From: Xanthobacteraceae bacterium
GTDB taxonomy: Bacteria > Pseudomonadota > Alphaproteobacteria > Rhizobiales > Xanthobacteraceae
Direction of reading: 5' to 3'
Length of the DNA stretch: 32,000 nt
Assembly (NCBI GenBank): GCA_035295845.1
Contig: DATGIF010000027.1
Span: 120,424-152,423, forward strand
In this document: piece after piece, positions 1 through 11,113 of the stretch
Layout: every line of letters begins with the position of its first letter
Position numbering within the stretch: position 1 is the stretch's first letter
Notes under the pieces: generated by a model
Database searches by the model: none
The model's input: only the letters and a program-made list of their open reading frames with translations
What the model was told of the DNA's origin: nothing
Translations under genes and position numbers: made by a program

Positions 1-1243
1 CGAAGGTTTGCATCAATTGCTTGAAGCCCTGGCCCTCTGCGCCGCCGAGGAGATTCTCCGCCGGCACCTCGAAGCCGTCGAAGCCGATTTCGAATTCCTT
101 CATGCCGCGATAGCCGAGCACTTCGATTTCGCCGCCGCTCATGCCGGGCGCGGGGAACGGATCGGCGTCGGTGCCGCGCGGCTTCGGCGCGAGCAGCATC
201 GAGAGGCCCTTGTAGCCCTGCTCGTTCGGATTGGTGCGCACGAGAAGCGTCATCAGGTCGGCGCGCACCGGGTGCGTAATCCAGGTCTTGTTGCCGTAAA
301 CTTTGTAGACGTTGCCTTCGCGCACGGCGCGGGTTTTCAGCGAAGCGAGGTCGGAGCCGGTGTTGGGTTCGGTGAAGACGGCGGTCGGCAGCACTTCGCC
401 GGAGGCGATCTTCGGCAGCCAGTGTTTTTTCTGCGCGTCGGTGCCGGAGCCGAGGATCAGTTCGGCGGCGATCTCCGAACGCGTGCCGAGCGAACCGACG
501 CCGATATAGCCGCGCGACAATTCATCGGAGACGACGCACATCGATTCCTTGCCGAGGCCGAGGCCGCCATATTCCTCCGGAATGGTGAGGCCGAAGACGC
601 CGAGCTCCGCCATGTGGGCGATGACCTCGAGCGGGATGTACTGGTTCTTGAGGTGCCAGCCGTGCGCGTGCGGCACCACTTCAGCATCGGCGAAGCGGCG
701 CATTTCCTTTCGCATGGCCTCGAGCGTTTCGTCGAGGCCGTCGTCGCCGACGGTGCCTTGCGACTCCTTGATGAACTCGGCCAGTTTGGCGCGCGCCGCG
801 GCCGTCGTTCCGTCCGCGATCAGCGACTTCACGGCCCGTGTCTTGCGCTGCTCGATGCGATCGTCGGCAAGGCCAAGCGCGGAGAGCCGCACGATCTCGC
901 CCTGGCTCATGGGAATGCCGCCGAAGATTTGCGCGAGCGTCTCGCCAAGGCCGATGATGACCAGGAGCCGCTCGGTTTCGCCGAGGCGTCCCGCCTCGTG
1001 CATGCGCCGGGCGTAGGCGGAAAGCTGGCGGATCACCTCGACATAGGTCGCAAGCCACGCGAGGCCGTGGGTTGCGTGCTGCTCGCGCTCAAGGAGCGAT
1101 GCGGAAAGGGCGCCGTTCGCGGACACGCGCGCGCCGACGGCATTGATCGCGTCGGTCAAAAGCGCGCCGGCAGCGTCTTCGGCCTCGGTGGCGTGGCGAA
1201 GAAGGTCCGGTTCTGCCGATGAAGCGCGGGCGGCGCGGGACAT
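1..1243 (-). CDS. mcd: Acyl-CoA dehydrogenase with long N-terminal extension, probably (2S)-methylsuccinyl-CoA dehydrogenase; 5' part only, C-terminus lies outside the window
   Basis: The minus-strand frame is open from the window edge to ATG at 1243-1241. It is absent from the ORF track because it runs off the window. Translation begins MSRAARASSAEPDLL. An N-terminal region of about 170 aa is followed by an ACAD core (GVFGLTIPEEYGGLG, FTEPNTGSDLASLKTRA, YKVYGNKTWITH). The long N-terminal extension together with ccr and ecm nearby favours Mcd. The + ORF 8..1222 is its antisense shadow. Confidence 0.7.
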   Translation of the reverse strand, partial: MSRAARASSAEPDLLRHATEAEDAAGALLTDAINAVGARVSANGALSASLLEREQHATHGLAWLATYVEVIRQLSAYARRMHEAGRLGETERLLVIIGLGETLAQIFGGIPMSQGEIVRLSALGLADDRIEQRKTRAVKSLIADGTTAAARAKLAEFIKESQGTVGDDGLDETLEAMRKEMRRFADAEVVPHAHGWHLKNQYIPLEVIAHMAELGVFGLTIPEEYGGLGLGKESMCVVSDELSRGYIGVGSLGTRSEIAAELILGSGTDAQKKHWLPKIASGEVLPTAVFTEPNTGSDLASLKTRAVREGNVYKVYGNKTWITHPVRADLMTLLVRTNPNEQGYKGLSMLLAPKPRGTDADPFPAPGMSGGEIEVLGYRGMKEFEIGFDGFEVPAENLLGGAEGQGFKQLMQTF

Positions 1244-1274
1244 GGCTCGTCCTCGATTTCAGCCATCAGCCTAC

Positions 1275-1289
1275 TTGTGCAGCGCACAA
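1275..1289. promoter_or_regulatory. Perfect inverted repeat TTGTGC-AGC-GCACAA, 32 nt upstream of the mcd-like start, in the mcd/MCP divergent region
   Basis: Read directly: 6-bp arms with a 3-nt centre. The TGC-N3-GCA core is shared with motifs upstream of ccr and ecm. Confidence 0.35.
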
Positions 1290-1425
1290 AATCAAGGCGC
1301 GAGGGCTCACCTCCGCCTTAGCAGGGTGTTGTTAACCATTCCAAGGCTTTGATCGTCATGGATATCCGGGCTCCGGCCTTCTGTCCGGCGCCGGCGCCTT
1401 TCGCTGTGGTTCAGAGACGTCAGGC

Positions 1426-3477
1426 ATGGACTTCTCCCGGCTCGGCTCGGTTTTTTCGCGGCTCGGCTCGCTCCTGCGGCGTCCGCTGTATCTCCTTTCC
1501 GTCCGCGCCCGCATCGCGACGCTCGCTTTCAGCCCGGTGCTCGGCTTCATGATTATCGGGCTCGCTTACGTCGTCGGCGAACACGAGCTCGAAAGCGCCT
1601 TCGACAGCGTGAAGAGCGCGAGCGCGCTCGCGGATGTGAGCCGCGATTTCAAAACCGCCATTGGCACCATGCGGATCACCGCCAAGGAATTCGCGGCGCA
1701 GCCCGAGACGAACGAGATCAAGACATTTAGCGAAGCCTACGCCGCGGCGCTGAAGAGCCTCGAAAGCATCGAGGTCGGCGGCGAAGCGTCGGAAAAGCAA
1801 GGGGTCGGCTCGCTGCGGCAGCGGTTGATGGAGTTGAAAGAGAAATTTTCCGCCATGCAGATGGAAGCGGAGAAACTCGGCCTGTCCGCGAATGAGGGTC
1901 TGCGCGGCCGGGTGGAAAAAAATTCGGCGGCGGTCGAGCGGATCATCAACCAGGAAATGTCATGGCTGTCGGATGCCGACCAGAAGAAGCTCCTGTTTTC
2001 GCTTCTGATCATGCGCCGGTACGAGGCCGACTACCGGCTGAACCGGCAGGATATCGCGCACTCGATGTTCTTTCTCGAGTTCCAGAATTTCAACAGTGCG
2101 CTCGGAAGGATGAACGCGGTCGGCGACAAGATCGCGCCGGCCTCGCTGTTGAAGCGGCAGTTGACCGAACAGGTCAGAAGCTATGCCGACACGTTCGGCG
2201 AATGGGCCGAGACCGACGACCGGGTCAAGCCGTCGCTCGCGATCATCGAACTGGACAGCGCCGAAATGCTGCCCGCCGCCGACAAGATCATCGCGCTTGC
2301 GGGGCAGCGCGAGGAAGAAGCAACCGCGCGGTTCGATGCCTCGCAGATGCGCACGAAGTGGATCATTCTTTCCGCCGGCTTCGCCGTCGCCCTGTTGGGA
2401 CTTTTGCTCAGCTGGCTGATCGGACGCAGCATCACGCGGCCGCTCGGGGGGCTGGCGAGCGCGATGAAAAGCCTTGCCGAAGGCAATCTTTCCGCCGCCG
2501 TTCCGGCGGCGCGCGCAAGCGACGAGATCGGCGCCATGGCGCGCGCGGTGCTTGTCTTCCGCGACAACGCCCGCGAACGCGACCGCCTCGAGGCCGAGCA
2601 GCAGCACACGAGCGCCGAACGCGAAGCGCACGCGGCGGCGGTGGAAAGGCTCGTGCGCGGCTTCGCGGGCACCGCGGATCTTGCGCTCGACGCGGTGAAG
2701 GCGGCCGCGAACAAACTGGGGATCGCCGCCGACGGCTTGGGCGAGACAGCAGGCCGGGTCGGCTCGGAAGCGGAGCAGGCGGGACGCGCGGCGGGTGCCG
2801 CTTCCGCGAACGTCGCGCAAGCCGCGGCCGCCGCCGAGCAGCTCGCGGGCTCGGTCGCGGAAGTGGCGCGGCAGACCGCAAGCTCGACCGAAGTTGCCGG
2901 CCGCGCGGTGACCGAGACGCAGCGCTCGGTCGGGATCATGGGCACGCTCGCGGAAGCGGCGAGCCGCATCGGCGAGGTGGTGGGCCTCATTCAATCGATC
3001 GCGGCGCAGACGAACCTTCTCGCGCTCAACGCCACCATCGAAGCGGCGCGCGCCGGCGAAGCCGGCCGCGGCTTCGCCGTGGTTGCCGCCGAGGTGAAGT
3101 CGCTCGCCAACCAGACCGCGCACGCGACCGAGGAAATTACGTACCAGATCAACGCGATCCAGGAAGCCTCGTTCGAGGCGCGGCGCGCGATCGACACGGT
3201 GAGCTCCGTCATTCAGGAAATGTCGGCCATGGCCGCTTCCATCGCCTCGGCGGTGGAGGAGCAAAATATGGCGGTCGTTTCGATCGCCAATAACGTGGCG
3301 CTCGCCTCAAACGAGGCCGATGTCGGCGCCAACGCCATGCGCGGCGTCGAGCACGCGGCGAGCGGCGCACGGCTGACCGCGAGCGACGTGGCCGCACTCG
3401 CCGTCCAGCTTGGCGGCGAAGCGGAAAATCTCAACGCCGCGATCGGCAAGTTCCTTGCCGAGGTGCGAGCCGCCTGA
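1426..3477 (+). CDS. Methyl-accepting chemotaxis protein (two TM helices, periplasmic domain, HAMP, MA signalling domain)
   Basis: 683-aa ORF. TM1 is [19 protein letters not shown] and TM2 is [22 protein letters not shown]. It carries the highly conserved MCP hairpin motif [33 protein letters not shown]. Confidence 0.9.
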
Positions 3478-3516
3478 AGCCGCGGTATTCGCGGATCGGG
3501 ATGCCTTCTTTTCCAC

Positions 3517-4404
3517 TTGCAAGGGGCGCAACGATCCGCAATCAGAGGGCGTGACCTTTGGGGAAACGCCGTGAACCGTGCCTACAGGCTCGCGCTCGAC
3601 GCCTTCTATGCCTTCAATGATGACGACGGCTGGGCGATCGCGAGCCACATCGCGCTGTCGGCGCTGATGGCGCTGTTTCCGTTCCTGATTTTCGTGACCG
3701 CGCTGGCGGCGCTGTTCGGCACCAAGGAGCTTGCCGACGCGACCGCGATGCTGCTGCTGCAAAGCTGGCCGAAGGAGGTGGCGGAGCCGATCGCATCGGC
3801 GATCCATGACGTGCTGACCAATTTGCGCACCGACGCGCTGACCTTCGGCGTCCTGTTCGCGGTCTATTTTTCCTCGAGCGGCATCGAAAGCCTGCGGATC
3901 GGCCTGAACCGCGCCTATGGCGTGCGCGAGACGCATTCGTGGTGGTGGATGCGGATCGAATCGATCCTCTATGTTTTCGTGGGCGCGGTTTCGCTCCTGG
4001 CGCTTGCGTTTCTCATCGTGCTCGGGCCCTTGATCTGGGCGACGGCGACGAAATACGCACCCTGGCTCAAGCCGTTCGCGGGCATCGTCGACCTCACGCG
4101 TTATGGGCTGACGTCGTTCGTGCTCGTGGTCGCGCTCATCGTGGTGCACAAATGGCTGCCGGCGGGGCGCCGGAGCTTTGCCGAGATCGCGCCGGGGATC
4201 GTGGTGACGCTTGTCTTGTGGATCGCGGCGGGTGCCTTGTTCGGCTCGTATCTGTCGGAATTCGCCTACACTTACGTCACGTATTATGCGGGGCTTGCCT
4301 CGGCAATGATCGCGCTCGTGTTTCTGTACGTGACGGCGTCGATTTTCGTCTATGGCGGCGAGCTGAATTCGGTGATCCGCAAGGAGCGCGAGGCGAGGCC
4401 ATGA
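3517..4404 (+). CDS. YihY/BrkB (virulence factor BrkB / ribonuclease BN-like) family inner membrane protein
   Basis: Polytopic membrane ORF with the family-typical N-terminus (AFNDDDGWAIASHIALSALMALFPFLIF). The track start at 3517 is TTG. An in-frame GTG at 3571, preceded by GGGGAA, is an alternative start. Confidence 0.8.
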   Translation: MQGAQRSAIRGRDLWGNAVNRAYRLALDAFYAFNDDDGWAIASHIALSALMALFPFLIFVTALAALFGTKELADATAMLLLQSWPKEVAEPIASAIHDVLTNLRTDALTFGVLFAVYFSSSGIESLRIGLNRAYGVRETHSWWWMRIESILYVFVGAVSLLALAFLIVLGPLIWATATKYAPWLKPFAGIVDLTRYGLTSFVLVVALIVVHKWLPAGRRSFAEIAPGIVVTLVLWIAAGALFGSYLSEFAYTYVTYYAGLASAMIALVFLYVTASIFVYGGELNSVIRKEREARP

Positions 4405-4413
4405 AGCCTTTAT

Positions 4414-5049
4414 TTATTTCATCAGCTTCGCGCTGAAACTCGTGCCGGCGCCTGCTGCCGGCGTGAAGGACATTTCCACTTCCGCGCGCTTGCCGCAAAG
4501 ATCGAACTTCCAGCTTTCCGACCACGGCGTGTTGCCGTCCTTGTAAGGCTCGATCTCGCGCGTGTCGGTGACCCAGCTTTTCTCGCAGCCGGGCGGATTC
4601 GCGGTTGAGGCCGCCACCTTCGCCACGCGGATCGAATCGCGCTGAAGCCGGGGATCCGCCTTGGTCTCGCCCGGCAGGAGTTCGATCGCGCGCGATTTTT
4701 CGTCTTCGAGAAAAAGCATCAGGTTTCGCCGCGCGCGCGGCTCGCAATCGACGAGATAGCGCTCAACCCAGGAAATCGATTGCGGCGAGACCGGATAGGG
4801 GAGCGCCTCGATCAACGCGCTCAGCCGGGCTCCCTTGCAGTCATAGCCGGGAATATTCGCGCCGGACTTCCTGAGCGCGTCGGCGCGCGTGGCCGCGAAT
4901 TCGCCGGAAAAGACGCGGGAGGCGATCTTCGCGCCATAGGCCCGCGTGATCGGCCCGCGATCGGCGCGGCTGACGTCCGGCCCATCGTCGGCAAAACCCG
5001 CGGATAAAGAAACAAGGAAGGCGAGGAAGAAGGCGGCAAGCCGCTGCAT
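4414..5049 (-). CDS. Secreted/periplasmic protein of unknown function (signal peptide, 4 Cys)
   Basis: Only the last 211 codons of track ORF 4414..5925 look coding. The ATG at 5049 gives MQRLAAFFLAFLVSLSAGFADD, a signal-peptide-like N-terminus. It starts 5 nt after the ccr stop. I recognise no family. Confidence 0.6.
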   Translation of the reverse strand: MQRLAAFFLAFLVSLSAGFADDGPDVSRADRGPITRAYGAKIASRVFSGEFAATRADALRKSGANIPGYDCKGARLSALIEALPYPVSPQSISWVERYLVDCEPRARRNLMLFLEDEKSRAIELLPGETKADPRLQRDSIRVAKVAASTANPPGCEKSWVTDTREIEPYKDGNTPWSESWKFDLCGKRAEVEMSFTPAAGAGTSFSAKLMK

Positions 5050-5054
5050 CGCGA

Positions 5055-6332
5055 TCAGCCGTCCGTCGCCTCGATCACGTCGTCGAACGTGCGCAGTCCC
5101 GGACGCGGCGCGTTGACGAGCACCGCCATGTTGCCGGGCTTGTGCTGGTTCTTCCACATCAGCATGTGGGCGTGGGGAATTTGCAGCCACGGCAGCGCCT
5201 CGCTCATGCAGGGATCGACCCGGCGGTCGAGCACGAACTGATTGGCGGCGGATGCCTGCTTGAGATGCGCGAAGTGCGAACCCTGAATGCGTTTCTGCCG
5301 CATCCACACGTAGCGCGCATCGAAAGTGATGTTGAAGCCGGTGGTGCCGGCGCAAAAGACGACCATGCCGCCGCGCTTGGCCACCAGCGTCGAGACCGGG
5401 AAGGTCTGCTCGCCGGGATGCTCGAAGACGATATCGACGTCGCGCTTGCCGGTGATGTCCCAGATCGCCTTGCCGAAGCGGCGCGCTTCCTTGACCCAGC
5501 CGTCGTATTCGGCGCTGCCGACCTTGGGCATGGCGCCCCAGCATTTGAACGCGCTCCGATTGATGACGCCCTTGGCGCCGAGATCGCGCACGTATTGCGA
5601 TTTGGCGTCGTCGGAGACGATGCCGATGGCGTTGGCGCCCGACGCGGCGACCAGCTGCACGCCGAACACGCCGAGCCCGCCCGAGGCGCCCCAGACCAGA
5701 ACATTGTCGCCGGGTTTCAGCGTGTGCGGCGGGTGACCGAACAGCATGCGGTAGGCGGTGGCGAGCGTAAGTGTGTAGCAGGCCGATTCTTCCCAGGTCA
5801 GATGCGGCGGCTTGCGCATCAGCTGGCGCGACTGCACGCGGCAGAACTGCGCGAACGAGCCGTCCGGCGTCTCGTAGCCCCAGATGCGCTGCGACGGCGA
5901 CAGCAGCGGATCGCCGCCGTTGCACTCCTCATCGTCGCCGTCGTCCTGATTGCAGTGCACGATGACCTCGTCGCCGACTTTCCAGCGCCGCACCTTTGGG
6001 CCGACCGCCCAGACGATGCCGGAGGCGTCCGAGCCGGCGACGTGGAACGGGTTCTTGTGCACGTCGAGCGGCGAGATCGGCTGGCCGAGGCCGGCCCACA
6101 CCCCGTTGTAGTTGACGCCGCCGGCCATGACGTAGACCAGCACTTCGTCGTCGGCGATCGGCCAGGTCGGCACCACTTCGCACTGCATCGCCTGTTCGGG
6201 CGGACCGTGGCGCTCCTTGCGGATCGCCCAGGCGTGCATCCTGGCCGGCACGTGGCCGAGCGGCGGCACTTCGCCGATGGCATAAAGCTCTTTGAGTGGC
6301 GCGGCTTGAGGCTTGTGCTGGGCAACCGCCAT
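5055..6332 (-). CDS. ccr: Crotonyl-CoA carboxylase/reductase
   Basis: The ATG at 6332 is preceded by GGAGG. The 425-aa product begins MAVAQHKPQAAPLKELYAIGEVPPLGHVPARMHAW. It has the MDR fold (VLVWGASGGLG) and Ccr-typical length and N-terminus. The upstream part of track ORF 5055..6569 is non-coding read-through. Confidence 0.9.
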   Translation of the reverse strand: MAVAQHKPQAAPLKELYAIGEVPPLGHVPARMHAWAIRKERHGPPEQAMQCEVVPTWPIADDEVLVYVMAGGVNYNGVWAGLGQPISPLDVHKNPFHVAGSDASGIVWAVGPKVRRWKVGDEVIVHCNQDDGDDEECNGGDPLLSPSQRIWGYETPDGSFAQFCRVQSRQLMRKPPHLTWEESACYTLTLATAYRMLFGHPPHTLKPGDNVLVWGASGGLGVFGVQLVAASGANAIGIVSDDAKSQYVRDLGAKGVINRSAFKCWGAMPKVGSAEYDGWVKEARRFGKAIWDITGKRDVDIVFEHPGEQTFPVSTLVAKRGGMVVFCAGTTGFNITFDARYVWMRQKRIQGSHFAHLKQASAANQFVLDRRVDPCMSEALPWLQIPHAHMLMWKNQHKPGNMAVLVNAPRPGLRTFDDVIEATDG

Positions 6333-6410
6333 GTGGCGACCTCCGCATCCCGCCCGAGCCCCACGACAACGGGCGATTCCGGGCGCGGTTGCGTCAGTCT
6401 GCATCACATT

Positions 6411-6427
6411 ATGTTGCGCTGCAATAA
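6411..6427. promoter_or_regulatory. Imperfect palindrome ATGTTGCGCTGCAATAA, 79 nt upstream of the ccr start
   Basis: 14 of 17 positions are identical to the motif upstream of ecm (ATGTTGCAATGCAACAA). It contains the 13-mer GTTGCGCTGCAAT, which repeats at 6531. Confidence 0.35.
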
Positions 6428-6511
6428 GCCTTTCGTTCGCTTCCCAGCTGGGGCCGCTGCTAAGCCAACCGAAAGGAATGCCGCGCCAAACTCGGACTGC
6501 GGCGCCATCCG

Positions 6512-7771
6512 GTGCCGGACCGCGAGCTTGGTTGCGCTGCAATGCACACCGCTCCCGCCACCATGCCAAAAGACGCCGCGCCGCTTTCGCCCCGGCGCTT
6601 GATCGGCGTCGTCAGCCTGGCGCTGGCGCTCGGCTATGCGGTGCTTCTATTCGGAACGTACCTGCAGGGGCATTTTTTGACCGACGCCCAAGGCCAGCCG
6701 ATCGCCAACGATTTCGTCGATGTGTATGCAGCGGGACAGTTGGCGCTCGAAGGCGCCGCGGCCACCGCTTACGACTGGCCGCAGCACAAGGCCGCCGAAG
6801 TCCGCGCGCTCGGCCATGATTTCCCGGACTATTATGGCTGGCATTATCCGCCACCGTTTTTGTTCGTCGCCATGGCGCTGGCGCTGCTGCCGTATCTCGC
6901 CGCTTCTTTGCTTTGGCTGGCCGCGACGCTTGCGGCGTATGCAACGGCGCTGCGCGCTATTCTCGGCGAGCGCAGCGGCATTTTGCTGGCGCTCGGCTTT
7001 CCGGCGGCGGTCTGGAATATCACAGCCGGGCAGAACGGCTTTCTCACCGCCTCTTTGATCGGCGGCACGCTTGCCTTGCTCGAGCGGCGACCGGTGCTCG
7101 CCGGCATTTGTCTCGGGCTCCTCACCTACAAACCACAATTCGGATTGCTGTTTCCACTGGTGCTGATCGTCGATCGGCGCTGGACCACGATCGCGGTCGC
7201 GGCGCTGGTGGCGTTTGCCATGGCGGCAGCCTCATGGCTCGCCTTCGGCAGCGCCAGCTGGCAGGCGTTCGTGCACTGGATGCCGATCACCAGCCACGTC
7301 GTGCTCGGCGAAGGCCGCGCCGACTTCGGCCGGCTGCAAAGCTTGTTTGGACTGGTCCGCGCGCACGGCGGCAGCGAAGGGCTTGCCTGGTCCATGCAGG
7401 CGGCGGGCAGTCTCGCGACCGCCGCGCTGGTCGTCTGGCTGTGGCGCCGCCGTGCGGCCTATGAGCAGAAAGCCGCCGCGCTCGCCGCCGGCGCACTGCT
7501 CGTTACGCCTTACGTCTATATGTACGACCTCGTCGTGCTCGCGGTCGCCGTCGCCTTCCTGCTGCGCCATGCGTTCGAACACGGCCTCGCCGCCGGCGAA
7601 GTCGCCGCGCTCGCCGCGGCCGGCGTGCTGATCTTGAGCTTCCCTTACGTCAAGACGCAGGTCGGCCTGGCGGCGGTGGTGATCGTCATGATGCTGATCG
7701 TTCATCGCGCCATCATCGCGGCGGCAACAGCGATATCTGTGCCGGCAACAGCGACAGAGCAAGCATCATGA
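6512..7771 (+). CDS. GT87 / DUF2029-family polytopic membrane glycosyltransferase (GT-C type), paralog 1
   Basis: Multi-TM ORF with family-typical blocks: DFVDVYAAG, GWHYPPPFLF, GQNGFLTASLIGG, LLTYKPQFGLLFPL and TPYVYMYDL. The start is uncertain: GTG 6512, ATG 6542 or ATG 6563. Confidence 0.75.
   Translation: MPDRELGCAAMHTAPATMPKDAAPLSPRRLIGVVSLALALGYAVLLFGTYLQGHFLTDAQGQPIANDFVDVYAAGQLALEGAAATAYDWPQHKAAEVRALGHDFPDYYGWHYPPPFLFVAMALALLPYLAASLLWLAATLAAYATALRAILGERSGILLALGFPAAVWNITAGQNGFLTASLIGGTLALLERRPVLAGICLGLLTYKPQFGLLFPLVLIVDRRWTTIAVAALVAFAMAAASWLAFGSASWQAFVHWMPITSHVVLGEGRADFGRLQSLFGLVRAHGGSEGLAWSMQAAGSLATAALVVWLWRRRAAYEQKAAALAAGALLVTPYVYMYDLVVLAVAVAFLLRHAFEHGLAAGEVAALAAAGVLILSFPYVKTQVGLAAVVIVMMLIVHRAIIAAATAISVPATATEQAS
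6529..6545. promoter_or_regulatory. Second copy of the GTTGCGCTGCAAT motif in the ccr / GT87 divergent region
   Basis: Exact 13-nt direct repeat of 6413..6425, located at 6531..6543. It overlaps the possible ATG 6542 start of the downstream membrane protein. Confidence 0.3.
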
Positions 7772-8973
7772 CGCTGCAGGCCGTGCCCTTTCATCAGAGC
7801 GAGATGGCATCGCCGCGATCGAGCGCGTTTGCGCTGATTTGTTTCGCGCTGCTGGTTGCCAATCTCGGCTACGTCGCGGCGTTGCTCCTCGATCACGGAT
7901 GGATCATCGACGCCGCCGGCAAACCGTTTCATACCGATTTCACCAGCGTCTACGCCGCCGGCCGGCTGGCGCTCGATGGCCACGCGGCGGCGGCTTATGA
8001 TTGGAATCTGCACTATGGGGCCGAAAATGCCGTCGTCCCCCATGACTACGCCGCTTATTTGGGATGGCATTACCCGCCGCCGTTTCTGCTGATTGCGGCA
8101 TTGCTGGCGACGTTGCCGTACGCCGCTGCGTTCCTGGTCTGGATCGCCGTCACGCTGCCGCTTTATCTGGCAAGCATGCGCGCCGTCGTCGGCGACAAGA
8201 TCGGCTGGCTCATCGGCGGGGCGTTTCCGTGCCTGCTGCCGAACATCGTTCCCGGGCAGAACGGGCTGTTCACCGCAGCCCTGATCGGCGGCACATTGGC
8301 GCTGCTGCCGGCCCGTCCGATTCTCGCCGGCTGCTGCCTCGGCCTCCTCACCTACAAACCGCAATTCGGCATTGTGTTTCCGCTGCTGCTCATCGCCGGC
8401 GGCCATTGGCGCGCCATCGGCGCCGCAGCGGCAAGCGCTTGCACGCTCGCGCTGGTGACAGTCGCGGTTTTCGGCGTCGCGCCCTGGAGCGAATTTTTGC
8501 ACTGGCTGCCGCTGACCTCGCACGCGCTGTTCGCGCAGGATTCCCCCGTTCACACCGAGTGGAGCAAATTTCAGAGCGTGTTCGCGTTGGTGCGGCTCCT
8601 CGGCGGCAGCGCGTCCTTGGCCTGGGCGCTGCAAGGGCTGCTGACGGTCATCGTGGCGCTCGCGCTATGGCTGATGTGGCGGAGCCATCGGATCAGCTAC
8701 GAACTGAAAGCCGCGGCCGCAGCGGCCGGCGTCCTGCTCGCCACGCCTTACGTTTATCTCTACGATCTCGCCATCCTCGCCGTCGCCGTCGGATTTATGC
8801 TCCGCGGCGCGCTGCGCACCGGCTTCGTTCGCGGCGAGGCCGGCAGTCTGGCACTCGGCGCAGCCCTCATGATGTTGCTGCCGTTCTTCGGCATTCCCGT
8901 CGGCTTGATGACCGTTGGAATCGCCGTCGTGCTGATTGGGCGGAGAATTGCCAGCCGCGACGTAGCGGCTTGA
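7768..8973 (+). CDS. GT87 / DUF2029-family polytopic membrane glycosyltransferase, paralog 2
   Basis: Collinear with paralog 1: DFTSVYAAG, GWHYPPPFLL, GQNGLFTAALIGG, LLTYKPQFGIVFPL and TPYVYLYDL. Its ATG overlaps the stop of paralog 1 (ATGA at 7768-7771). Confidence 0.75.
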   Translation: MTLQAVPFHQSEMASPRSSAFALICFALLVANLGYVAALLLDHGWIIDAAGKPFHTDFTSVYAAGRLALDGHAAAAYDWNLHYGAENAVVPHDYAAYLGWHYPPPFLLIAALLATLPYAAAFLVWIAVTLPLYLASMRAVVGDKIGWLIGGAFPCLLPNIVPGQNGLFTAALIGGTLALLPARPILAGCCLGLLTYKPQFGIVFPLLLIAGGHWRAIGAAAASACTLALVTVAVFGVAPWSEFLHWLPLTSHALFAQDSPVHTEWSKFQSVFALVRLLGGSASLAWALQGLLTVIVALALWLMWRSHRISYELKAAAAAAGVLLATPYVYLYDLAILAVAVGFMLRGALRTGFVRGEAGSLALGAALMMLLPFFGIPVGLMTVGIAVVLIGRRIASRDVAA

Positions 8974-9033
8974 TCCAACGCACGGGTCAAAAGCTTCACG
9001 TCTCCAGTCACTTGACGGGCGTCGGCGACGCCC

Positions 9034-9050
9034 ATGTTGCAATGCAACAA
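9034..9050. promoter_or_regulatory. Palindrome ATGTTGCAATGCAACAA (perfect TGTTGCA-A-TGCAACA), 42 nt upstream of the ecm start
   Basis: Read directly: 7-bp arms. It is related to the motifs at 6411, 6529 and 1275. A TTGACG hexamer lies at 9012-9017. Confidence 0.35.
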
Positions 9051-9091
9051 AATCGGCCGCAGAGTGTTGGCAAAGCGCGACTGCAGCACCG

Positions 9092-11113
9092 ATGCGCGAC
9101 CAGGCCCGACCGCAACGCGACAAGCCGTGGATCTTCCGCACCTACGCGGGGCATTCCACCGCGGCGGCGTCGAACGCGCTCTACCGCGGCAATCTGAGCA
9201 AGGGCCAGACCGGGCTGTCGGTTGCCTTCGATCTGCCGACCCAGACCGGCTACGACAGCGATCATCCGCTGGCCAAAGGCGAAGTCGGCAAGGTCGGCGT
9301 GCCGGTCTGCCATCTCGGCGACATGCGGGCGTTGTTCGAGCACATTCCGCTCGGCGGCATGAACACCTCGATGACGATCAACGCCACGGCGGCGTGGCTG
9401 TTGGCACTCTACGTCGCGCTGGCCGACGAGCAGGGCGTGGCGCGCCGCGACTTGGCCGGCACCACCCAGAACGACATCGTCAAGGAATATCTGTCGCGCG
9501 GCACCTATGTGTTTCCGCCGGCGCCGTCGCTGCGACTCACCAAGGACGTGATTCTGTTCACCACCCAGGAGATGCCGAAGTGGAATCCGATCAACGTCTG
9601 CTCCTATCACCTGCAGGAGGCCGGCGCGACGCCGGTGCAGGAGCTGGCGTTTGCGCTCGCCACCGCGATAGCGGTGCTGGACGCGGTGCGGGCGTCGGGT
9701 CAATGCGCTGAAGACGAATTCGGCGATGTGGTCGGGCGCATCTCGTTTTTCGTCAATGCCGGGCTGCGCTTCGTCACCGAGCTGTGCAAGATGCGCGCCT
9801 TTGCCGAGCTGTGGGACGAGATCACCCGCGAGCGCTATGGCGTGCGTGACGCCAAGCAGCGGCTGTTCCGCTACGGCGTGCAGGTCAATTCGCTCGGCCT
9901 GACCGAGCAGCAGCCGGAGAACAACGTCGCCCGCATCGTGCTGGAAATGCTCGCGGTGACCCTGTCAAAAACCGCGCGGGCGCGCGCCGTGCAGCTGCCG
10001 GCCTGGAACGAGGCGCTCGGCCTGCCGCGGCCGTGGGACCAGCAATGGTCGCTGCGGCTGCAGCAAATCCTGGCCTACGAGACCGACCTTCTGGACTATG
10101 GCGATATTTTCGACGGCGCGCCGGTGATCGCCGCCAAAGTCGCCGAACTGAAGGAGGCGGCGCGCGAGGAGCTGAAACAGATTGAAAAAATGGGCGGCAC
10201 AATTGCCGCGGTCGAATCCGGCTATCTCAAACAGCAGCTTGTCGAAGCCAACGCGCGCCGCACCGAGGCGATCGAGCGCGGCGAGCAGATCGTGGTCGGC
10301 GTCAACCGCTTCGTCGAGACCGAACCGTCGTCGCTTAAGCAAGCCGCCGACGCCGTGGTCACCGTGGCGCCACAGGCCGAAGCCGATCAAATCGCGCGAC
10401 TCAACGCTTGGCGCGCCGCGCGCGACAATGCGGCGGTGGCCACCGCGCTGGCAGCATTACGGGCGGCGGCGCGCGGCGGCGCCAACGTCATGCCGGCCTC
10501 GATTGCCTGCGCCAAAGCCGGCGTCACCACCGGCGAGTGGGGTTTCGTCTTACGCGAAGCGTTCGGCGAATATCGCGCGCCGACCGGAATCGGCAGCGCG
10601 ATGCGCAATGACGCCGAAGGTCTCGACGATATCCGCGCCGAAGTCGATCGCGTGTCGAAAAAGCTCGGCCGGCGCCTGAAATTCCTGGTCGGCAAGCCTG
10701 GCCTCGACGGCCATTCCAACGGCGCCGAGCAGATCGCGGCCCGCGCCCGCGATGCCGGCATCGACGTCGTCTACGACGGTATCCGCCTGACCGCGGAGGC
10801 GATCGCCACGGCGGCCGCCGAACAACGCGTGCATGTCGTCGGCCTCTCGATCTTGTCCGGCTCGCACCTGTCCCTGGCGCGCGAGGTGATCGCCCGCCTG
10901 CGGGAAGCGGGCCTCTCCGATGTGCCGGTCGTGGTCGGCGGCATCATTCCGCCACAGGACGCCGACGCGCTCAAGCAAGCCGGTGCAGCGGCGATCTACA
11001 CGCCGAAGGATTTTGAATTGAATCTCATCTTGAGCGAGGTCTGCCGCATCGTCGAACGTAGCGCTAGTTGCGCATCACAGCCGCAATCGCTTCAGCAAGG
11101 GCGCTCGGACTGA
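9092..11113 (+). CDS. ecm: Ethylmalonyl-CoA mutase (fused adenosylcobalamin-dependent acyl-CoA mutase, MeaA type)
   Basis: 673-aa single-chain mutase. The N-terminus KPWIFRTYAGHSTAAASNALYRGNLSKGQTGLSVAFDLPTQTGYD is typical of MeaA/Ecm. The C-terminal B12-binding domain contains GLDGHSNGAEQIA and VVGLSILSGSH. It co-occurs with ccr and an mcd-like gene. Confidence 0.85.
   Translation: MRDQARPQRDKPWIFRTYAGHSTAAASNALYRGNLSKGQTGLSVAFDLPTQTGYDSDHPLAKGEVGKVGVPVCHLGDMRALFEHIPLGGMNTSMTINATAAWLLALYVALADEQGVARRDLAGTTQNDIVKEYLSRGTYVFPPAPSLRLTKDVILFTTQEMPKWNPINVCSYHLQEAGATPVQELAFALATAIAVLDAVRASGQCAEDEFGDVVGRISFFVNAGLRFVTELCKMRAFAELWDEITRERYGVRDAKQRLFRYGVQVNSLGLTEQQPENNVARIVLEMLAVTLSKTARARAVQLPAWNEALGLPRPWDQQWSLRLQQILAYETDLLDYGDIFDGAPVIAAKVAELKEAAREELKQIEKMGGTIAAVESGYLKQQLVEANARRTEAIERGEQIVVGVNRFVETEPSSLKQAADAVVTVAPQAEADQIARLNAWRAARDNAAVATALAALRAAARGGANVMPASIACAKAGVTTGEWGFVLREAFGEYRAPTGIGSAMRNDAEGLDDIRAEVDRVSKKLGRRLKFLVGKPGLDGHSNGAEQIAARARDAGIDVVYDGIRLTAEAIATAAAEQRVHVVGLSILSGSHLSLAREVIARLREAGLSDVPVVVGGIIPPQDADALKQAGAAAIYTPKDFELNLILSEVCRIVERSASCASQPQSLQQGRSD

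Follow-up and report, generated by a model that had tools for sequence, protein, structure and literature searches.

Ethylmalonyl-CoA pathway genes and their upstream palindromes

Three genes of the ethylmalonyl-CoA (EMC) pathway were present in the window, that is, the whole stretch of 32,000 nucleotides that was analysed. An mcd-like acyl-CoA dehydrogenase gene (2–1243, minus strand) is represented by its 5′ part and runs past the window edge; its open frame comprises 562 aa in the full genome, and the protein has a long N-terminal extension, as is typical of Mcd. The crotonyl-CoA carboxylase/reductase gene ccr (5055–6332, minus strand) matched TIGR01751 with 598 bits, and the ethylmalonyl-CoA mutase gene ecm (9092–11113, plus strand) encodes a single-chain B12 mutase, a methylmalonyl-CoA-mutase-type protein of 673 aa. 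The identities given to these genes in an earlier sequence-only reading of this DNA were upheld, by the TIGR01751 match for ccr and by protein type and length for ecm and mcd.

The palindromes that the same reading had reported upstream of the three genes were re-read from the letters and lie where it had placed them: TTGTGCAGCGCACAA at 1275–1289 before mcd, ATGTTGCGCTGCAATAA at 6411–6427 before ccr and ATGTTGCAATGCAACAA at 9034–9050 before ecm, the 17-mers of ecm and ccr being identical at 14 of 17 positions, as claimed. The measured distances to the ATG (31 nt for mcd, 78 nt for ccr and 41 nt for ecm) agreed with the proposed 30–80 nt. Reduced to 15-nt boxes, with no strand assigned, the candidate PhaR-type sites were TTGTGC-AGC-GCACAA before mcd (1275–1289) and TGTTGCA-A-TGCAACA before ecm (9035–9049), both exact matches to TKKTGCRNYGCAMMA, and TGTTGC-GCT-GCAATA before ccr (6412–6426), with one mismatch. 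The repeat of GTTGCGCTGCAAT was likewise found as described, with a second exact copy at 6531–6543, at an offset of 118; the ATG of the first GT87 gene (6563) follows 19 nt further on. With the phasin-derived matrix described below, this second copy reached just 2.1 bits, vs. 22–24 bits at the mcd, ccr and ecm boxes, and it was dropped as a good operator; it is at best a weak, doubtful box.

Motif specificity

The bare core TGC-N3-GCA occurred 1253 times in the genome, with an intergenic/coding density ratio of 1.15, and was rejected as a genome-wide discriminator because of this abundance and lack of intergenic enrichment. The extended 15-mer TKKTGC-RNY-GCAMMA had five exact copies in 3.28 Mb, all intergenic and none coding: phasin genes were preceded by two of them and mcd and ecm by one apiece, and the fifth lay upstream of a narK-like gene. 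When one mismatch was allowed, 35 matches were found genome-wide, 28 of them intergenic or 5′-proximal and seven coding (density ratio approximately 8.6). Within the window, TKKTGCRNYGCAMMA with at most one mismatch matched three times, precisely at mcd, ccr and ecm, against 0.35 matches expected from shuffles, and three matches were obtained in none of 100 shuffled windows. A motif frequency at chance level, which the sequence-only reading had named as counting against its own proposal, was not found for the extended 15-mer; the bare core was uninformative.

The genome scan with a position weight matrix (PWM) that this reading had called for was carried out with a matrix trained on 48 boxes that precede phasin genes in other genomes, and placed the EMC sites among the top nine. 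Across all positions of the 3.28 Mb, ecm ranked 6th (score 24.0), mcd 7th (23.9) and ccr 9th (22.2), with a gap in score after rank 9, the pattern that chose the training sites having itself been partly shaped by the EMC sites. An upstream score of at least 20 was reached by only 11 of 2623 genes. Independent of that site-picking pattern were the comparison with published footprints (see below) and an enumeration of perfect inverted repeats upstream of the phasin genes in 27 relatives. The latter yielded only TGCA-N1-TGCA, GTGC-N3-GCAC and TTGC-N3-GCAA, which correspond precisely to the cores found at ecm, mcd and ccr, respectively. For annotation, this means that a PhaR matrix of 15–21 nt, and not the TGC-N3-GCA core, separates real sites.

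Candidate operators for PhaR

The palindromes are likely operators for PhaR (AniA), a PHB-granule-binding transcriptional repressor. Within the mcd site lies TGCGCTGCACAA, letter for letter the DNase-I-footprinted PhaR site of phaP4 in Bradyrhizobium diazoefficiens, and within the ecm site lies TGCATTGCAACA, which is listed as the PhaR site of bsr4236, a gene repressed by PhaR. Compared with the PhaR consensus TGCRNYGCASMA given in the available passages on B. diazoefficiens (Nishihata et al., 2018; PMC6201568), the mcd site fitted exactly on both strands, and the ecm and ccr sites each had one mismatch, at the S position. According to the same passages, the authors accepted sites with an S-position mismatch, namely TGCATTGCAACA and TGCACCGCAACA (PMC6201568).

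The same type of box was associated with phasin genes. Pairs were present before the phasin genes of this genome (C19:36751/36781 and C16:53857/53876), those at the C19 promoter flanking CTTGAC, and boxes were found at 26 of 30 phasin loci from the relatives and this genome together, paired at most of them. A single phaR gene (G000:C27:92906-93508, minus strand) lies on the same contig, approximately 27 kb to the left of the window, and its product carries the domains PHB_acc_N and PHB_acc (PF07879, 104.5 bits; PF05233, 63.2 bits). PhaR autoregulation has been reported in some species; no box was found in the phaR–phaA intergenic region scanned here.

The proposal of one dimeric regulator acting through a shared operator at three separated EMC genes therefore gained from the rarity of the motif, its intergenic enrichment and the footprints, but its EMC-specific part did not hold. 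As to the protein, a TetR regulator of the CcrR type had been suggested; PhaR/AniA is the most probable regulator instead, because the same boxes occur at the phasin genes and the phaP4 footprint recurs letter for letter at mcd. The remark that no regulator gene is visible in the window was correct in that no TetR gene occurs there, but phaR exists on the same contig outside it.

Promoter geometry and proposed mechanism

The position of the boxes suggests that they overlap core promoter elements of the genes that they are predicted to regulate. At mcd, a putative −35 hexamer, CTTGAT (1291–1296, minus strand), was read from the sequence and the genus alignment, and together with a putative −10 hexamer, TAGGCT (1268–1273, minus strand), it encloses a 17-nt spacer filled by the box; CTTGMT-17 nt-TAGSSY was conserved in the genus alignment of mcd upstream regions. 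At ccr, one box arm, TTGCAG (6419–6424, minus strand), would itself be the −35 hexamer, with the conserved block CAGACT (6396–6401, minus strand) as the predicted −10 hexamer. The 17-nt distance to this block was fixed in 52 species when alignments were anchored on the box, and the wider block TGCGGCA(G/C)ACT was conserved at +13 to +23 from the box centre. The geometry at ecm would be as at ccr, with the box arm TTGCAA (9037–9042, plus strand) as the candidate −35 and CAGAGT (9060–9065, plus strand) as the candidate −10 hexamer; the ecm upstream region of one relative (G008) reads TTGCAT-17-CACACT. A strict sigma-70 consensus scan of the mcd, ccr and ecm upstream regions found no promoter, and the −35/−10 assignment therefore draws only on cross-species conservation.

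In cells without PHB, free PhaR dimers or oligomers would sit on the TKKTGC-RNY-GCAMMA boxes and exclude RNA polymerase from the mcd, ccr and ecm promoters, because the boxes overlap either the presumed −35 hexamer, in the form of an arm TTGCNN (ccr and ecm), or the spacer between the presumed −35 and −10 hexamers (mcd). A surplus of acetyl-CoA would lead to the formation of PHB granules and to titration of PhaR onto the polymer, whereupon ccr, ecm and mcd, encoding the committed, pathway-specific EMC enzymes, would be derepressed along with the phasins. This would open the route from 3-hydroxybutyryl-CoA/crotonyl-CoA, the shared intermediate, to assimilation. Given this presumed overlap, PhaR most likely represses ccr, ecm and mcd until PHB granules titrate it, and acetyl-CoA assimilation is probably turned on only when such granules are present.

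It is unlikely that PhaR binds these sites as an activator or in a dual role rather than as a repressor. Such roles have precedents: in the passages available, PhaR was proposed as an activator of pdhA and pckA in B. diazoefficiens (PMC6201568) and was described as activating phaP3 in R. eutropha (PMC12849132). The predicted box geometry, however, with overlap of the presumed −35 at ccr and ecm and a spacer position at mcd, is that of the repressed phasin promoters both here and in B. diazoefficiens, and the R. sphaeroides data, as summarised in the relevant part of PMC12983893, favour negative control of the EMC pathway.

Extent of the predicted regulon

The regulon predicted for PhaR is neither EMC-specific nor inclusive of the whole EMC pathway. 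Strong boxes were found at the phasins, a patatin-like gene and the narK-like gene, and weaker ones at phaC (13.0), phaZ2 (12.8), gltA (12.9, 83 nt upstream) and a pccA-like gene. No box with at most three mismatches was found in a useful position at mcl, mch, pccB, two other carboxyltransferases, phaA/phaB, phaR or phaZ1. The enrichment that the sequence-only reading had proposed to look for upstream of further EMC genes did not appear, since mcl, mch, pccB and phaA/phaB had no box and the pccA-like gene only a weaker one. Strong paired boxes also occur at C19:84716/84936, and a further box at C30:19351; an Rfam scan of these sites for an MmgR-like sRNA returned only sub-threshold chance matches.

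This spread of sites bears on whether a dedicated EMC regulator, for example a TetR-family protein resembling CcrR, binds the palindromes, with the likeness to PhaR sites either coincidental or due to a motif common to two regulators; we regard this as very unlikely. In M. extorquens, the TetR-type protein CcrR has been described as activating ccr, and a similar palindrome, TTGTGCATGGCACAA, lies 71 nt upstream of a TetR-family gene of this genome (C17:51509-52147), but its centre does not keep to R-N-Y and its score is just 14.9. Moreover, neither in the window nor in the scanned loci of relatives does any of the three EMC genes have a regulator gene next to it, and a pathway-specific regulator would not account for the occurrence of the motif at phasin, patatin-like and phaC genes. 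The ccr loci of Methylobacterium and Methylorubrum, from which CcrR comes, had no PhaR-type box within 3 kb upstream.

Phylogenetic conservation

The sites before mcd, ccr and ecm are conserved and far beyond chance. Footprinting of the three upstream regions, as the sequence-only reading had recommended, gave strong conservation for ccr and mcd, and for ecm a box scoring at least 16 at 7 of the 19 loci that were scanned in relatives. The ccr box was present with at most two mismatches in 64 of 80 related species (coding controls, 7/80) and with at most one mismatch in 47 of 80 (coding controls, 1/80), at 35–100 nt upstream of the gene. At class level, a ccr box scoring at least 16 was found in 28 of 45 alphaproteobacterial families. 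The mcd box was kept in all seven genus members, the other six all being exact matches with a varying spacer triplet. Within the genus, a strong box was absent from most ecm orthologues. In a second ccr–ecm pair, on contig C4, a weaker box (16.9) preceded ccr2 and none preceded ecm2.

Across species, both box arms were conserved while the central triplet drifted within R-N-Y. Together with the confinement of the exact genomic copies to non-coding DNA, the excess of matches in the window and the selection of precisely these sites by a matrix trained on the phasin sites of other genomes, this strongly disfavours the notion, which we consider extremely improbable, that the palindromes are chance matches or mere promoter hexamers (TTGC as −35) bound by no regulator, even though the core is common and one box arm coincides with a plausible −35.

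A broader interpretation, which we offer tentatively and hold somewhat short of probable, is that PhaR control of the committed EMC genes is an ancient, class-wide alphaproteobacterial circuit built on PhaR boxes and of unusually economical layout, with one palindrome between divergently oriented ccr and ecm having dual −35 arms. Under such an arrangement, the two TTGC arms of the single palindrome may serve as the −35 of two opposed promoters, and one PHB-titrated PhaR dimer may gate ccr and ecm at once. The two GT87 genes inserted here may have split this ccr–ecm unit, each gene keeping its own box, and the circuit may have been lost or replaced in the serine-cycle methylotrophs Methylobacterium, Methylocystis and Methylosinus.

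So far, the link between PHB and the EMC pathway has drawn its support from physiological and transcriptomic work on one or two model organisms. The boxes would give it a concrete and testable cis-regulatory basis, in which PHB status, read by PhaR, gates the entry of acetyl-CoA into the pathway. Because ccr boxes are conserved in most sampled alphaproteobacterial families, this rule may be general, which is relevant to the engineering of PHB producers, purple bacteria and EMC-pathway chassis. In such organisms, deletion of phaC or phaR has had unexpected effects on growth on acetate.

Comparison with known systems

CcrR, reportedly identified by Hu and Lidstrom in 2012 in Methylobacterium extorquens AM1, is said to be a TetR-family protein that activates katA-ccr, and its site reportedly lies far upstream of katA. 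The system resembles the present one in that ccr is regulated through a palindromic site, but CcrR is an activator and belongs to a protein family other than PhaR.

In S. meliloti, the PhaR motif is WNWD2NYGCRNYGCRNH2WNW, and pairs of it flank the −35 of phaP genes (PMC12542648). The boxes described here share with it the palindromic YGC-RNY-GCR core between AT-rich outer arms, present in two copies around the phasin −35, and the box-like site upstream of gltA has its counterpart in gltA being a PhaR target in S. meliloti. They differ in their association with the EMC pathway, which does not occur in the text of PMC12542648 (no instance of ‘ethylmalonyl’ or ‘crotonyl’), EPS genes dominating the extended regulon there.

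The likeness to the PhaR operator of B. diazoefficiens USDA110, footprinted there at phaP1 and phaP4, extends to core and arms, to boxes that, here as predicted, overlap or flank the −35, to paired phasin boxes laid out here as at phaP1, and to regulons that are both pleiotropic and reach central carbon metabolism, here as predicted, there according to the available passages of PMC6201568. In the clade studied here, the arm reads GCAACA or GCAATA, with an A in place of S, more often than GCASMA, and ccr, ecm and mcd are not among the PhaR targets named in those passages.

The closest functional parallel concerns Rhodobacter (Cereibacter) sphaeroides, in which genes of the EMC pathway are under negative control by PhaR (Shimizu, Teramoto and Inui, 2022, as cited in the part of PMC12983893 available). 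Common to both cases would be the functional link between PhaR and the EMC pathway, with PHB as the relieving signal; the difference is that the present case concerns an uncultured Xanthobacteraceae-like bacterium and is built purely on cis-elements. The PhaR control predicted for the EMC genes here is a further instance of an already known control system.

Palindromic sites upstream of mcd, ccr and ecm

Sequence checking placed palindromes upstream of three ethylmalonyl-CoA (EMC) pathway genes: TTGTGCAGCGCACAA (1275-1289), 31 nt before the mcd ATG (1243, minus strand), ATGTTGCGCTGCAATAA (6411-6427), 78 nt before the ccr ATG (6332, minus strand), and ATGTTGCAATGCAACAA (9034-9050), 41 nt before the ecm ATG (9092). 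A second copy of the ccr-site 13-mer, GTTGCGCTGCAAT, lies 118 nt to the right of the first (6531-6543). All four sequences occupy exactly the positions assigned to them in the sequence-only reading, and its gene assignments were supported by NCBIfam (ccr, TIGR01751, 598 bits; a single-chain B12 mutase of 673 aa; a dehydrogenase). The mcd product is an acyl-CoA dehydrogenase with an N-terminal extension of approximately 170 aa.

Across the 3.28-Mb draft genome (63% GC), the core TGC-N3-GCA, on which that reading had based a shared operator, was uninformative, with 1253 copies and no real intergenic enrichment. The 15-mer TKKTGC-RNY-GCAMMA, hereafter the box, occurred exactly five times, each time in intergenic DNA. 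Allowing one mismatch, 35 copies were found, 28 of them in intergenic DNA or no more than 150 nt from an ORF start and seven in coding sequence, which makes up 68% of the genome. In the 32-kb window, which spans C27:120424-152423, this relaxed pattern matched three times, at precisely the mcd, ccr and ecm sites (0.35 matches expected from dinucleotide shuffles).

Identity of the regulator

Of the five exact copies, two precede phasin genes (identified via Pfam Phasin_2), where the boxes are paired approximately 30 bp apart: ATGGTGCGATGCAAAAT ... CTTGAC-CTTTA-TGTTGCAGTGCACTA-TTTG on contig C19, and TTGTGCGCCGCAACA and TGTTGCGACGCACAC on contig C16. Judged by sequence, this pairing is the arrangement published for PhaR (AniA), a repressor that responds to PHB. 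According to the Bradyrhizobium diazoefficiens study (PMC6201568), DNase-I footprints TGCGACGCACAA and TGCGTCGCACAA flank the phaP1 -35, footprint TGCGCTGCACAA covers the phaP4 -35, and the PhaR consensus is TGCRNYGCASMA. The Sinorhizobium meliloti motif is YGC-RNY-GCR with AT-rich arms, pairs of which flank the phasin-gene -35 (PMC12542648). The phaP4 footprint is contained letter for letter in the mcd site (reverse strand, TTGTGCGCTGCACAA), and the ecm site contains TGCATTGCAACA, which the same B. diazoefficiens text lists as the PhaR site of PhaR-repressed bsr4236 (PMC6201568). The genome holds one phaR gene (C27:92906-93508, minus strand; domains PHB_acc_N and PHB_acc), 27 kb left of the window and divergent from phaA.

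A box was present at 26 of 30 main phasin loci from relatives and this genome, exact at 19 and mostly paired. A genome-wide scan was run with a 21-nt weight matrix built from 48 boxes at phasin loci of other genomes only, and it placed all three EMC genes within the top nine positions. The two boxes of the C19 phasin ranked first and fifth, a patatin-like gene second, the C16 phasin third, C19:84716 fourth, ecm sixth (score 24.0), mcd seventh (23.9), the upstream region of a narK-like gene eighth and ccr ninth (22.2), after which the score fell to 19.5. Upstream matches scoring at least 20 were found for only 11 of 2623 called genes, and no other position in the window scored above 12. Because the search pattern could bring circularity, all perfect inverted repeats with arms of 4-6 nt and spacers of 0-9 nt were enumerated in the phasin upstream regions of 27 relatives; only TGCA-N1-TGCA, GTGC-N3-GCAC and TTGC-N3-GCAA were enriched, which are the ecm, mcd and ccr cores.

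The rarity of the box, the ranking by the phasin matrix and the footprints below support an operator shared by the three EMC genes, and its regulator is quite probably PhaR. Binding by CcrR, the TetR-type regulator raised in the sequence-only reading, is disfavoured because the motif is also present at phasin and other PHB-related genes. At C17:51424-52147, a TetR-family regulator gene has TTGTGCATGGCACAA 71 nt upstream, a palindrome with the arms of the mcd box and a broken R-N-Y centre, which may be that regulator's own operator.

Conservation in relatives

Footprinting of the upstream regions indicated conservation at ccr and mcd and a patchier pattern at ecm. A ccr site with at most two mismatches was found in 16 of 19 scannable loci of close relatives and in 64 of 80 species representatives (47 with at most one), compared with 7 and 1 of 80 for a control segment within ccr; these and the following counts are descriptive, without P values, because the relatives are not independent. 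The species set included Xanthobacteraceae MAGs, Pseudolabrys, Bosea, Rhodoplanes, Roseiarcus, Rhizomicrobium and Amorphus, and nearly all its sites lay 35-100 nt before the start. With one genome per alphaproteobacterial family, ccr upstream regions scored at least 16 in 28 of 45 cases and at least 20 in 22; shuffled regions rarely reached 14.

All six other genus members matched TTGTGC-RNY-GCA[AC]AA exactly at mcd, with differing central triplets (GCT, GTT, GGT, ATC, GAT), and such conserved arms around a drifting centre are what would be expected if a protein binds the palindrome. Scores of at least 20 were reached at 10 of 19 mcd loci, including the one described here. Strong ecm boxes were present in the relatives G008, G011, G014, G021, G026 and G028, and the matrix scan detected none at ecm in most genus members.

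No comparable box was found within 3 kb upstream of ccr in Methylobacterium, Methylorubrum, Methylocystis and Methylosinus (loci L125, L126, L129, L131, L135, L137-L139, L146 and L150), the best methylotroph scores being 13.6-14.0, in 2 of 11 loci. Most other Hyphomicrobiales sampled, unlike these methylotrophs, carried a PhaR-type box before ccr, which suggests that serine-cycle methylotrophs control ccr differently.

Promoter geometry and mode of control

When 52 ccr promoters were anchored on the box, a second conserved block, TGCGGCA(G/C)ACT, emerged; it spans +13 to +23 relative to the box centre and corresponds to window 6396-6408 and the orthologous stretches of 52 species. This block is interpreted as a -10 region but could instead be bound by a second factor. 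A strict sigma-70 scan of the three upstream regions found no promoter, and the following elements are predictions, all with 17-nt spacing. A box arm would provide the -35 at ccr (TTGCAG, 6424-6419; -10 CAGACT, 6401-6396) and at ecm (TTGCAA, 9037-9042; -10 CAGAGT, 9060-9065); the putative ecm promoter of G008 reads TTGCAT and CACACT. At mcd, the box would fill the spacer between CTTGAT (1296-1291) and TAGGCT (1273-1268), a layout retained across the genus. Since these geometries resemble those of repressed phasin promoters, the three genes are most likely controlled by repression in which RNA polymerase is sterically excluded. Titration of PhaR by PHB granules would then open the EMC pathway.

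The compact relatives G026, G021 and G014 have ccr and ecm side by side and divergently oriented, with one palindrome upstream of both. In the window, ccr and ecm are separated by tandem GT87 glycosyltransferase paralogs (two ORFs, 6563-8973), and each gene retains its own box. Judging from those relatives, a bidirectional promoter unit seems to have been split by insertion of the GT87 genes. The first GT87 ATG is preceded, at a distance of 19 nt, by the weak second 13-mer copy, which scored 2.1 and has GC-rich flanks; this copy might serve as a low-affinity auxiliary site, or it might have been left behind by the rearrangement that brought in the GT87 genes.

Extent of the regulon

No box was found upstream of mcl, mch, pccB, phaA/phaB, phaR or phaZ1, and weaker sites preceded phaC (13.0), phaZ2 (12.8), gltA (12.9; its S. 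meliloti counterpart is among further PhaR targets, PMC12542648), a pccA-like biotin carboxylase gene (TGTTGCGGCGCAACG) and ccr2 on contig C4 (16.9). Because of this distribution, the boxes appear to mark three pathway-specific EMC enzymes within a broader PhaR regulon rather than an EMC-only regulon.

The ccr2 gene belongs to a second, divergent ecm-ccr pair (C4:16120-19914), 75% and 83% identical to the window copies, respectively. Its box lies 37 nt upstream, and ecm2 has none; most genus relatives' ecm genes are likewise boxless and diverge from the window ecm to much the same degree (73-76% identity).

Elsewhere, the genome's second-best box (C27:86514-86534, score 26.4) directly precedes the gene for a patatin-like phospholipase (85466-86503, minus strand), with a Fur/Zur-like gene running divergently from it; the phospholipase may be a PHB-granule-associated lipase. 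A NarK-family nitrate/nitrite transporter gene has an exact box, TTGTGCACCGCACAA (C30:19351-19371, score 23.8), within the approximately 300 nt before it, which could point to a connection between PhaR and nitrate metabolism. Two strong boxes 220 nt apart (C19:84716-84956, scores 24.8 and 16.9) are followed by a small ORF whose N-terminus resembles a signal peptide and whose tail is Gly-rich; an Rfam scan there gave no credible sRNA.

Comparison with known PhaR systems

The motif, the PhaR regulator and its mechanism are already known. A PhaR-EMC link has long been suspected in Methylobacterium extorquens, and a functional one was reported for Rhodobacter sphaeroides, as relayed in PMC12983893. 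The ccr, ecm and mcd genes are absent from the direct PhaR targets given for S. meliloti (PMC12542648) and from those in the accessible text for B. diazoefficiens (PMC6201568). Our literature search found no description of conserved PhaR boxes at ccr, ecm or mcd, although earlier mapping in the 2022 R. sphaeroides work is possible. To these systems, the present analysis adds the breadth of conservation and an operator arm that would double as the -35 element.
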